A stretch of 32,307 bases of DNA from a virus. Lineage: Duplodnaviria > Heunggongvirae > Uroviricota > Caudoviricetes. Location of the stretch: the IMG/VR virus record IMGVR_UViG_2711768067_000015. One strand, 5' to 3'. The notes under the pieces are model-generated. The model saw nothing but the letters and a program-made list of their open reading frames with translations. It had not been told where the DNA came from and did no database searches. This document shows positions 6,811-30,763 of this stretch, piece after piece; the first letter of the stretch is position 1; the number at the start of each line of letters is the position of its first letter. Both the position numbers and the translations under genes were made by a program.

Positions 6811-7562
6811 CAGTTTACCCCATCGGTATTGCTTCCACCGCGCTGAACACCGCCATGAGTGTGCGTATCATCGATTGGCTTGCCGTTAGCCTTAACGCTC
6901 CCCAAGAACTCAACAGCACCAGTGATTTTTGAAGCCACACCAGAAACAACAGACCCCACCATGCCCCCCATCCAGGTTAACAGGCCATGAATGGTTACTT
7001 TCTCAGAAAAATCAGCCAGAGGGGCAACCACATCAAGACCACCCGGGGCGACAATTTTAATTTTCCGGGTATCAGGATTAAGCTCAAAATAGGTGCTGCC
7101 GTCGTCACTACGCAACTGTGTGGCACTGATATTAATACCGCTAATCTTCCTCGCCTGCGACTGGGGACCGGCTATACAAAACGCATCCGATAAATCATGC
7201 ATTCTGTCATCGACCGGCTCCTGTATCCCACCGCTCTGCCACCAGAAATCAATACAACGATCGGCAAAAACGACAAGACACTCATCCCCGGCTTTAACCG
7301 GAAAAGTCAACGTACAGCCTCCGCCGCGCGGAAATACCACTGGCACATCCACCAGCAACGGGTAATTTTTGGTAATGCGGTTACCGTCGTTATCCTTTTC
7401 AACCGAACGGATAGCTGGCTGTACAACCGCCGTCACCGCGTCGGGATCGAATGACTGAACAATGCCAGGCAAGGCGACACGGATCTGGTTCTTTGTTGTT
7501 TCCCGTTCAGATTTGAATGTTTCGGCAAGGTCGCCGCTGCGGGTCTGGTCAGATACTGCCAT
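6810..7562 (-). CDS. Baseplate spike/assembly protein V-like (Mu gp45-like)
   Basis: ORF begins at the ATG at 7562 (MAVSDQTRSGD...) with a GGAGCC ribosome-binding site; the track's longer version uses a TTG. Size and position match phage baseplate spike proteins. Confidence 0.7.
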   Translation of the reverse strand: MAVSDQTRSGDLAETFKSERETTKNQIRVALPGIVQSFDPDAVTAVVQPAIRSVEKDNDGNRITKNYPLLVDVPVVFPRGGGCTLTFPVKAGDECLVVFADRCIDFWWQSGGIQEPVDDRMHDLSDAFCIAGPQSQARKISGINISATQLRSDDGSTYFELNPDTRKIKIVAPGGLDVVAPLADFSEKVTIHGLLTWMGGMVGSVVSGVASKITGAVEFLGSVKANGKPIDDTHTHGGVQRGGSNTDGVN

Positions 7563-23523: not shown

Positions 23524-23742
23524 ATGAGTGATGAATACAAACAGAAAATCGGCATTCCAGATGACCATACACTGGAGCTTGTCTCTTCTAACTGGAAAGG
23601 AGCTCGAAAAGGTCAGGATACCGATGAATACCTTTACCGTGAGTTGGACGCTGCGGGAAATGTAGTGGCCACTTATGAAATTAAAGATTCAACTTCTATA
23701 TATCCACCATTCGGAAGATCTATCTCTTATAAGAAGGTCTAA
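23524..23742 (+). CDS. Hypothetical small protein (72 aa), divergent from the terminase operon
   Basis: ORF with an AAGGA ribosome-binding site 7 nt upstream of the ATG. It is the only plus-strand ORF in this stretch that does not overlap a minus-strand gene. Confidence 0.5.
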   Translation: MSDEYKQKIGIPDDHTLELVSSNWKGARKGQDTDEYLYRELDAAGNVVATYEIKDSTSIYPPFGRSISYKKV

Positions 23743-24078
23743 GCAACCAACTGACCAGCATGGCATTTCCGATTGAACATTTACACGTCCAGGATAATGC
23801 CATGTCTATTCCACAGTTCTATCGTCACCTACCGATATTGGCGTGAACTACACGCACTTGACATCAGCAGGAGCGAAGTACGCCCCCCTCCCGTCTAGGT
23901 CGCCAGCGGCACAAAGCCATTAACCAGCTCAGGCTGACGTCGTGACATCTTGCCCGTTTACTCGCCGCCGTCGTTCGTATTCAGTTTGATGATGTAGATG
24001 TCGGACATTGAGAGCCTCTTTATCCGCTTGTGGGGATATCAGTTAAGTTATCCCGTGTAGGGTATAAGCCATTATCAA

Positions 24079-24104
24079 AGCCATTCTGCAAGGAATGGCT
24101 TTTG
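24079..24104 (+). terminator. Rho-independent terminator-like hairpin (plus strand)
   Basis: Stem AGCCATTC / GAATGGCT (8 bp), loop TGCAAG, followed by TTTTGTG. Confidence 0.45.
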
Positions 24105-24132
24105 TGATGGCAATAAAAACAGCCGCAGGAGG

Positions 24133-24381
24133 TTAGATTAAGTCTTCACGTTTTACATATTCATCGATGTGATAAAGATGCATAAACTTTTCATCATGCC
24201 CACCAAATATCTGTGTTATCGATTCGTCATCCCGGCCTTCAACAATTAAATGCTTTTCATGTGTTCCCGGCATAAATAACGCCTTTACAACATGTTCTAA
24301 GTGGTGTTTGAACTGTATGTGAAGCTCTCTTTCATCCTCAAAAGGAATATTTTCGGTAAGTTCAAAATAACGAAATGCCAT
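24133..24381 (-). CDS. Hypothetical small acidic protein (82 aa) between the lysis and packaging modules
   Basis: ORF with a GGGAGG ribosome-binding site. A perfect 12-bp palindrome lies about 45 bp upstream. Confidence 0.6.
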   Translation of the reverse strand: MAFRYFELTENIPFEDERELHIQFKHHLEHVVKALFMPGTHEKHLIVEGRDDESITQIFGGHDEKFMHLYHIDEYVKREDLI

Positions 24382-24632
24382 ATCTACCTCCCGTATAATG
24401 AGAGCTCATCATTAATGAATTTTCTTGTCATGACAATGACAAATTATTTCAGGTTCCATTAGATATAGCTTTGTAATGAACAGGCACTTATCTCAACGCA
24501 GCCCCTTACCGCGCGCCAGATGCTCAACTTCAAGCATCAGCAATGAGATGTTTAATCTGGATTCACTCCAGAAGTAATCACCACCCTGTCTACAGAGCCA
24601 GATGTGAAGAATGATGAGTAAAATTATCGCTA

Positions 24633-25100
24633 TCATCGAAGGCATTGCATCCTGATGTATTCCTGAAGCGCTCTCAGTGCTGTTTGGTCGCGGATAATTC
24701 CGTCCCGGATACCGAGAACGTTTCGTCCAGCAACTGGAGAGAGTTCGACGGAGGCATCATTGCCCATGCCGGAGGCGCTGGAGGTTTCGGCTGAGGATGG
24801 CACAGGGCATTTTCCTTTGACGAGCACCCTGCCACCATTATCAAGCTTGCGCCGAAGAGCATCATTTTCAGCTTTCGCATCAGCTAACTCCTTCGTGTAT
24901 TTAGCATCGAGTGCATCAGCATCACGCTGGCGCTGCTGCATGTCAGTAATGGTGGCGTTCGCCTTCTCCAGTTCACTGGCCTTGTTATCGCGCTGCTCTT
25001 TGTAGGCGATTGCGTTATCACGGTAATGATTAACAGCCAATGACAGGCAGACGATGATGCAGATAACCAGAGCGGAGATAATCGCGGTTAACCGACTCAT
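24633..25100 (-). CDS. Rz: i-spanin Rz
   Basis: From the internal start [19 protein letters not shown]... there is an N-terminal transmembrane helix, then a coiled-coil-like charged region. Rz1 is embedded in the +1 frame. The track's longer ORF starts at 25229. Confidence 0.75.
24674..24880 (-). CDS. Rz1: o-spanin Rz1 (lipoprotein embedded within Rz)
   Basis: 68-aa ORF entirely inside Rz in another frame, with lipobox LIMVAGC and a Pro-rich mature part ([11 protein letters not shown]). Confidence 0.75.
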
Positions 25101-26019: not shown

Positions 26020-26095
26020 TGGTGCTGGTTAACGGACTTGAACCGCTACCCATTCGCTTACAAGGCGACTGCTCTACCATTGGAGCTAAACCAGC
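26020..26095 (-). tRNA. tRNA-like gene, anticodon UGU (Thr), CCA encoded
   Basis: Hand-folded cloverleaf: perfect 7-bp acceptor stem (GCTGGTT/AACCAGC), D-arm GCTC/GAGC with GG in the loop, anticodon loop CUUGUAA, T-arm with TTCAAGT loop. There is one mismatch in the anticodon stem, and position 14 is C rather than the conserved A. Confidence 0.6.
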
Positions 26096-26100
26096 ATATT

Positions 26101-26175
26101 TGGCGGGACAGCGTGGACTCGAACCACGATAAGAAGGTTAACAGCCTTCCGTAATGACCTTTATACGACTGACCC
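26101..26175 (-). tRNA. tRNA-like gene, anticodon GUU (Asn-like), possibly degenerate
   Basis: Perfect T-arm (CGTGG-TTCGAGT-CCACG) and anticodon arm (GAAGG-CUGUUAA-CCTTC), but one U-U mismatch in the acceptor stem and a weak D-stem. Confidence 0.45.
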
Positions 26176-26266: not shown

Positions 26267-26755
26267 CTATGCTACATGTTTAATTTTCTCTACACGTTTC
26301 CGATTTTTAAACGCACTATCCAGAACCGGGTAAATCATAAACAACGAGGCATTAAGGATTTCGTCAACTTCCCGTCGACAGGTTGCGAGCGACGGTTTTT
26401 GAATGCGCCCGCCGCCACGGCATAACATCTTGCGAGGTCTTGCGACGCGATGATAGTAAGATGCAATGGCGTGCTTGGAAGAGCCATGAGCGTAGTAGCT
26501 GAGGAGGATTCCAAAGGCTTTCTTGTCAATGTACATGACGGAATCGACGACCTGAGAAATCAACATTCCATCATCATCATTACACATTGGCCTTGTCATA
26601 ACTCTTCCCGGCTCTACGCTCTCCATGAACTTCGCTATTACGCTGCTCATGCGCTTTTCCAGACGACCTGAATAAACCCATGCGCCCCACAGTTCAAGCC
26701 AGCCATTCAGCCACTCATGCTGTTCTTTGGTGAGGTTTAGTTCTCTTATGCCCAC
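26267..26755 (-). CDS. Q: Late gene antiterminator Q (phage 82/933W type, not lambda-Q type)
   Basis: 162-aa ORF directly downstream of ninI. Motifs ELWGAWV and [13 protein letters not shown] resemble 82-family Q proteins as I recall them. Start is GTG in the track. Confidence 0.7.

Positions 26756-28367: not shown

Positions 28368-30763
<2,396 letters not shown>

Follow-up and report, generated by a model that had tools for sequence, protein, structure and literature searches.

Among the described systems that come closest to the locus examined here are the morons of lambdoid phages and the operators in which a ribbon-helix-helix (RHH) repressor reads an array of short repeats. Morons often encode lysogenic-conversion, phage-exclusion or anti-defence functions. 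Omega of pSM19035 is one of the RHH repressors that act on arrays of short repeats. Another, ArtA of the S. aureus plasmid pSK41, binds ACATGACATGT arrays (PMC2777438). A moron is defined as DNA that is extra in comparison with related phages, deviates in GC content and carries its own expression signals, and the cassette described below, with its predicted expression signals, fits this definition (PMC3594210). The cassette lies in a window of 32,307 nucleotides, the whole stretch of DNA that was analysed, and contains an 82-aa gene with a perfect 12-bp palindrome upstream, which the original prediction had suggested to be the operator of a dimeric DNA-binding protein. We propose that the palindrome, the symmetry of which is lineage-specific, is an ordinary -35 box whose annotation as an operator is unwarranted, and that the locus adds one more case to a familiar class, the morons that carry a sigma-70 promoter, with a small acidic protein that is uncharacterised.

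On the minus strand of the window, the Q antiterminator gene is followed by tRNA genes, the holin, lysozyme and Rz/Rz1 genes, a 50-aa open reading frame, a hexamer array, the 82-aa gene and a hairpin. Beyond the hairpin lie an opposite-strand 72-aa open reading frame and then the genes of the small and large terminase subunits. The features of this neighbourhood are:

26267-26755, minus strand: Q antiterminator gene
26101-26175, minus strand: tRNA-Asn(GTT)
26020-26095, minus strand: tRNA-Thr(TGT)
24493-24645, minus strand: 50-aa hydrophobic open reading frame, homologue of Sf6 gene 65 (phrog_11822), last gene of the lysis block
~24120-24460, minus strand: moron cassette of ~340 bp (predicted promoter plus gene), between the 50-aa open reading frame and the conserved hairpin
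24133-24381, minus strand: 82-aa gene (phrog_35226)
24071-24109: conserved hairpin CATCACAAAAGCCATTCCTTGCAGAATGGCTTTGATAAT downstream of the 82-aa gene (fold z = -3.75)

The lysis block comprises a P21-type holin, a lysozyme and Rz/Rz1. The tRNA pair stands between Q and the holin gene, an arrangement also seen in phage 21 and in late regions of the Sf6 type. The 72-aa open reading frame (23524-23742, plus strand) is oriented opposite to all its neighbours and carries the annotation hypothetical in strains S1 and QML220601; searches of Pfam, PHROG and PADLOC gave no match for it, and it may be another small accessory unit. Further away, two plus-strand open reading frames of 340 and 260 aa (~28810-30611) represent an istA/istB insertion of the IS21/IS100 family in the nin/replication region. 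Related prophages do not have this insertion, and therefore no genome of the collection covers at least 80% of that part of the window.

Pairwise BLAST against mEp460, 611R6 and Sf6 places the cassette junctions at ~24460-24470 and 24108-24119, and the flanks (24018-24119 and 24460/24470-24720) are 89-95% identical to these phages. In mEp460 the slot between the same flanks is empty, with ~30 bp between them, while in Sf6 and 611R6 it holds gene 66, which in Sf6 is unrelated in sequence to the 82-aa gene. In deposited phages, matches are confined to the sequence on either side of the 82-aa gene, and no copy of the cassette was found among them, low-stringency searches included. The GC content of the cassette is 36.7%, compared with 49.6% for the lysis genes and 51.2% for the terminase genes. 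Within E. coli the cassette is present in 10 of the 5426 complete genomes, and its carriers belong to at least two unrelated prophage backbones. The first is lambda-like with Terminase_2/TerL and is represented by QML220601, a prophage of 48 kb and the closest carrier; the second, from strain 20, resembles e14/CPS-53 and has a terminase of the P27 family together with an HNH endonuclease. Both backbones are integrated at the same tRNA-Thr gene beside proA (L048, QML220601, 43066-43141; L074, strain 20, 7329-7404), a shared site that would offer opportunities for recombination in doubly infected or polylysogenic cells.

The hairpin at 24071-24109 is probably a terminator and at the same time the boundary of the cassette. 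Its U-tract is poor. It is common to phages without the cassette; hence it did not arrive with the cassette. In several relatives a hairpin element of ~35-40 bp brackets the promoter-plus-gene cassette on both sides. Its flanks (CATTACA[AG].AG.C ... G.CT..GATAAT) are conserved, while the stem is variable with compensating changes. Besides the copy at 24071-24109 and a degenerate remnant at ~24447-24472 of the window, copies were seen in L017 (1729-1763 and 2166-2200), L019 (3889-3923 and 4326-4361) and L020 (582-617, 966-1001 and 2149-2184). The element likewise flanks alternative cargo genes or an empty slot in Sf6 (L006) and mEp460 (L004). It looks like a joint terminator and recombination boundary for moron cassettes inserted between the lysis and terminase genes.

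The protein encoded by the 82-aa gene is acidic (pI 5.3, net charge about -9) and rich in histidine (9 residues), and a confident model (pLDDT 86) gives it a ferredoxin-like beta-alpha-beta-alpha-beta fold. A Foldseek search of this model against PDB and BFVD gave nothing significant, sequence searches of Pfam, PADLOC and PDB remained without matches, and the PHROG family is unannotated. The family is very small, with 13 clusters at 90% identity among 5.8 billion proteins; a profile search of 1.84 billion representatives (50%) gave 8 matches, one of them a spurious repeat protein. The hosts are Escherichia, Enterobacter, Scandinavium, Cedecea and Serratia, and it is among unrelated lambdoid or P22-like prophages of these genera that the compact moron has moved. 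In relatives the gene is almost always positioned between lysis and packaging genes, on many different backbones. Of the histidines, H21 and H71 are invariant and H26, H27, H30 and H68 nearly so. Weak and non-significant fold neighbours of the model include the C-terminal domain of NikR, ZntA and Atox1, which are metal-binding domains, and the model gives hints that the protein may bind metal. We regard it as a reasonable, if unremarkable, candidate for functional screens.

The sequence upstream of the gene contains the following elements:

24425-24436: perfect 12-bp palindrome TTGTCATGACAA, inside the hexamer array
24425-24442: hexamer array TTGTCA-TGACAA-TGACAA (plus-strand reading), present only in the E. 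coli-type lineage
24431-24436, minus strand: putative -35 hexamer TTGTCA, one half of the palindrome, from a promoter scan and conservation in 11 lineages
24409-24418: another perfect palindrome, TCATTAATGA, of 10 bp, which overlaps the -10 hexamer
24408-24413, minus strand: putative -10 hexamer AATGAT, separated from the upstream -35 hexamer by 17 nt
24387-24392, minus strand: Shine-Dalgarno sequence GGGAGG, followed after 5 nt by the ATG

The letters on which the original prediction was based are confirmed: positions 24425-24436 read ttgtcatgacaa, and the extra half-site tgacaa adjoins at 24437-24442. The array is indeed situated upstream of the 82-aa gene, at a measured distance of 44-61 nt from the ATG of this minus-strand open reading frame. 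Read on the gene strand it is TTGTCA-TTGTCA-TGACAA, and it can alternatively be described as a 7-N4-7 inverted repeat, TTGTCAT-TGTC-ATGACAA.

The suggestion that TTGTCA could double as a -35 element is strengthened by our analysis. The combination TTGTCA-17-AATGAT was the sole sigma-70-like match on the gene strand in a 2.9-kb scan; TTGTCA fits the consensus TTGACA in 5/6 positions, the spacer of 17 nt lies within the usual 16-18 nt, and AATGAT fits TATAAT in 4/6 positions including A2 and T6. Transcription would then start at about 24399-24401. The -10 hexamer AATGAT is weak, so that an activator or another factor could be needed. For comparison, loci were gathered (16 from viral contigs and 9 further ones) and their distinct upstream regions aligned, which gave a footprint set of 11 independent lineages of the gene with protein identities of 57-89%; a scan of genome contigs for related loci found no relatives. 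The first three letters of the -35 hexamer, TTG, are identical in 11/11 lineages, the hexamer being TTG(C/T)NN and mostly TTGYCA. The spacer to the -10 hexamer is exactly 17 nt in all 11, and A2, A5 and T6 of the -10 hexamer are again identical in 11/11 (AATGAT, GATGAT, GAATAT or GAGTAT) while the neighbouring positions vary. A Shine-Dalgarno sequence is retained in all relatives as GGAGG or GAGG. This conservation of both hexamers and their spacing, with drift elsewhere, supports by comparison a promoter that would be active in front of the gene. Within the spacer, 9-11 of the 11 diverged lineages keep the motif AAAT.C (24417-24422). Conservation of this kind is unusual in the spacers of sigma-70 promoters; the motif could cause DNA curvature or be contacted by some factor.

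The original prediction had further suggested that the gene is not simply read through from the lysis operon, and this agrees with our observations: the gene sits in a separate AT-rich cassette, and that of the relatives lies just downstream of hairpins or terminators. In several of them a hairpin or a T-run terminator stands immediately upstream of the promoter, as would be anticipated for a gene that has to be transcribed independently. From its sequence and that of its relatives, the array site is probably the sigma-70 core promoter of the moron and not a repressor-binding site.

The symmetry itself does not share the conservation of the promoter. The window contains 5 perfect 12-bp palindromes versus 8.7 +/- 3.1 in first-order Markov simulations, and thus the palindrome by itself is not above chance. 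A run of three adjacent hexamers in which every unit is the same hexamer in one orientation or the other was found at a single place in the window and in 0/200 simulations, according to a test that was devised after the array had been seen. When as many as 2 mismatches are allowed, the window contains 3 matches to the 12-mer versus 1.7 expected, and none of them is convincing as a second site. All 17 E. coli-type copies, 10 from E. coli genomes and 7 from viral contigs, have the same letters in the array, but they are too alike for this invariance to be informative. In the 11 diverged lineages the positions of the TGACAA half (24430-24425) agree with the window in only 2-9 of 11 cases, and the extra TGACAA half-site is not kept. 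The dyad score at the palindrome centre is 6/6 in the window versus a mean of 1.9/6 in the 11 others, where 1.5 is expected by chance. No perfect inverted repeat longer than 5 bp was found in the 100 nt upstream of the relatives' genes; the longest ones measure 4-5 bp and are located elsewhere. In L015-type sequences the array position reads TTGATATTGCCATGCTAC. The 10-bp palindrome at the -10 hexamer is partly retained, as CATTAATG in L012 and L015, as CATCGATG in L026 and as TTCGAA in L018. We rejected it as a true operator: its dyad scores are mildly raised (~2.8-3.1 of 6), which the conserved -10 hexamer itself may explain.

A search for a protein that could bind the symmetry was equally negative. 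The original prediction had proposed looking for the palindrome elsewhere in the prophage, and no second copy with up to 1 mismatch was found in the window, in the 48-kb QML220601 prophage or in the strain 20 prophage. In viral contigs the 18-mer occurs in the cassette copies and in 9 unrelated matches, of which 8 fall within a single conserved coding sequence and 1 stands alone. Across 596 Gb of genome sequence, counted with one genome per species, it has 25 matches in scattered unrelated phyla versus ~17 by chance according to our own estimate. There is no sign of an array regulon. A literature search for the 12-mer and its 10-mer core found no paper reporting it as an enterobacterial operator. 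None of the Fur, PhoB, LexA, 434, SlyA, NikR and GntR-family consensus sequences is known to fit the array in both sequence and spacing. The motif is missing from related loci that keep the gene, the very outcome that the original prediction had named as speaking against it. Together with the single copy, the differing repressors of the two backbones and an 82-aa product without a DNA-binding fold, this leaves the idea of an operator for a dimeric protein unsupported by the sequences compared.

How the symmetry arose can be approached by comparing the array with its nearest outgroups L012 and L015. The array 18-mer differs from them by 6-8 of 18 letters at an overall divergence of 14%, which ranks it with the most diverged stretches of its length in the 324-nt cassette, and every one of these changes moves toward the perfect array. 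Independent neutral point substitutions would not produce changes that all build the repeat, and a single templated event or selection for a new site is needed. It is known from E. coli that template-switch mutation turns quasipalindromes into perfect inverted repeats (PMC7202029). We favour such a mutational origin because nothing else supports a binder. Most simply, the TGACAA half and the extra half-site would be a derived peculiarity of the E. coli-type cassette and a mutational by-product.

The alternative that survives best is that the array represents a recently evolved, lineage-specific operator of the E. coli-type cassette for a host or phage regulator. Candidates would be an RHH protein reading short-repeat arrays or a GntR-type dimer reading T-GT-N-AC-A, and the regulator would occlude the -35 hexamer and make moron expression conditional. 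The rarity of the three-hexamer array in simulations, its overlap with the -35 hexamer, where a repressor could act, and the clustering of derived changes that all create repeats are in line with such an operator. There is also a precedent in the PartA operator of ArtA, TTGTCATGACATG..., whose first 11 nt are shared with the palindrome (PMC2777438). However, the array occurs in no diverged lineage that keeps the gene and the promoter, it has no second copy in either carrier and no other regulatory context, and the literature search did not show its sequence as an enterobacterial operator. Moreover, template switching can make perfect inverted repeats without selection, and ArtA belongs to an unrelated Gram-positive plasmid. 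We therefore consider a lineage-specific operator unlikely. Slightly more doubtful is the specific proposal that the -35 region was remodelled into the array in one step or by selection and now serves as the operator of a host regulator, possibly of the RHH or GntR type. If the operator reading were true, a phage accessory gene that moves horizontally would have come under host control recently, in an event that can be dated.

It could also be argued that the upstream region contains no promoter at all, that the symmetry is a coincidence without function, and that the gene is expressed solely by read-through of the late operon. The chance-level number of 12-bp palindromes is compatible with this, as is the scan as a whole, in which promoter-like matches were fewer than in shuffled sequences (2 vs 5.1). 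Nevertheless, TTG, the 17-nt spacer and A2/A5/T6 do not change across 11 diverged lineages while the positions in between do, and hairpins or terminators stand immediately upstream in relatives, which makes mere coincidence very unlikely.

Control by the gene product itself, to which the original prediction had also pointed, would have the 82-aa protein bind the palindrome and repress its own promoter. Small phage proteins encoded beside palindromes are often autoregulators, and the predicted structure opens with a beta strand that leads into a helix. The protein is acidic, however, its modelled ferredoxin-like fold is neither HTH nor RHH and has no significant structural match, and the conservation of its orthologues is not matched by any of the palindrome. 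On charge and fold, autoregulation was rejected as highly improbable. We give the same low standing to a role at the RNA level, in which UUGUCAU-UGUC-AUGACAA would form a 7-bp hairpin in late read-through transcripts and act as a signal for processing, stability or translation. The hairpin is present in both the minimum-free-energy and the centroid structures, but the region folds like shuffled sequence (z = -0.94; 39/200 shuffles at least as stable), and this candidate was ruled out on that ground. The stem is also short and AU-rich, lies upstream of the predicted start of the cassette transcript and is missing in relatives. Finally, binding of the prophage CI or a Cro-type repressor, which would couple the moron to the lysis-lysogeny switch and has the general precedent of phage repressors on palindromic, promoter-overlapping operators, is extremely improbable. 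The cI/cro and OL regions of both carrier backbones largely exclude it: their operators (AGTAC-N5-GTACT in QML220601, CTTGTACC-N5-GGTACAAG in strain 20) do not resemble the palindrome, and the repressors have an S24 peptidase domain but no DNA-binding domain in common, yet the palindrome is identical in both prophages and has no further copy in either.

Taken together, these observations make it likely that the site serves as a moron's core promoter and that the symmetry of the array is incidental. An AT-rich cassette of ~340 bp has been inserted between the end of the lysis block and the conserved hairpin ahead of the terminase genes, bringing a predicted promoter with its -35 hexamer at 24436-24431, a 17-nt spacer, the -10 hexamer at 24413-24408, a start near 24400 and the GGGAGG sequence. 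From this promoter, host RNA polymerase would express the 82-aa gene in the repressed prophage, and during lytic growth Q-antiterminated late transcription would pass through the cassette as well. One half of the palindrome would function as the -35 hexamer, and the rest of the array could have resulted, for example, from the perfection of an inverted repeat by template switching.

Compared with the described systems, the array shares with the repeat-array operators of RHH repressors such as ArtA of pSK41 the units of 6-7 bp, the mixture of direct and inverted orientations and the overlap with a promoter (PMC2777438). In contrast, those systems belong to Gram-positive plasmids, with a cognate RHH gene adjoining the operator and several operator copies, whereas the cassette is not accompanied by an RHH gene, and its array is present once and is not conserved. 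The likeness to ArtA is a resemblance only and not membership; it illustrates what arrays of this type are capable of but provides no evidence for the function of the array site. The position of the cassette corresponds to the variable slot behind the lysis genes of P22-like and lambdoid phages (Sf6 genes 65-67, the hkbM/hkbN region of HK620), with the same flanks, namely the gene-65 homologue on the upstream side and the CATTACAAAAGCC...GGCTTTGATAATGG hairpin on the downstream side; unlike in those phages, the occupant here is a different gene with its own predicted promoter region of 80 bp. From the lambdoid morons of the HK97/HK022 concept, for example HK97 gene 15, the cassette differs in its cargo, an uncharacterised acidic protein of 82 aa from a very small family, and in the absence of an intact terminator upstream of it in the window; since only a degenerate hairpin remnant is present there, late read-through into the cassette is also expected. 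Its position is comparable to that of lambda bor, which follows Rz. In all other respects compared, it resembles these morons: it is an extra, putative transcription unit among conserved late genes, is missing from syntenic phages, differs in GC content, carries its own predicted promoter with a hairpin downstream, and has moved between unrelated backbones.
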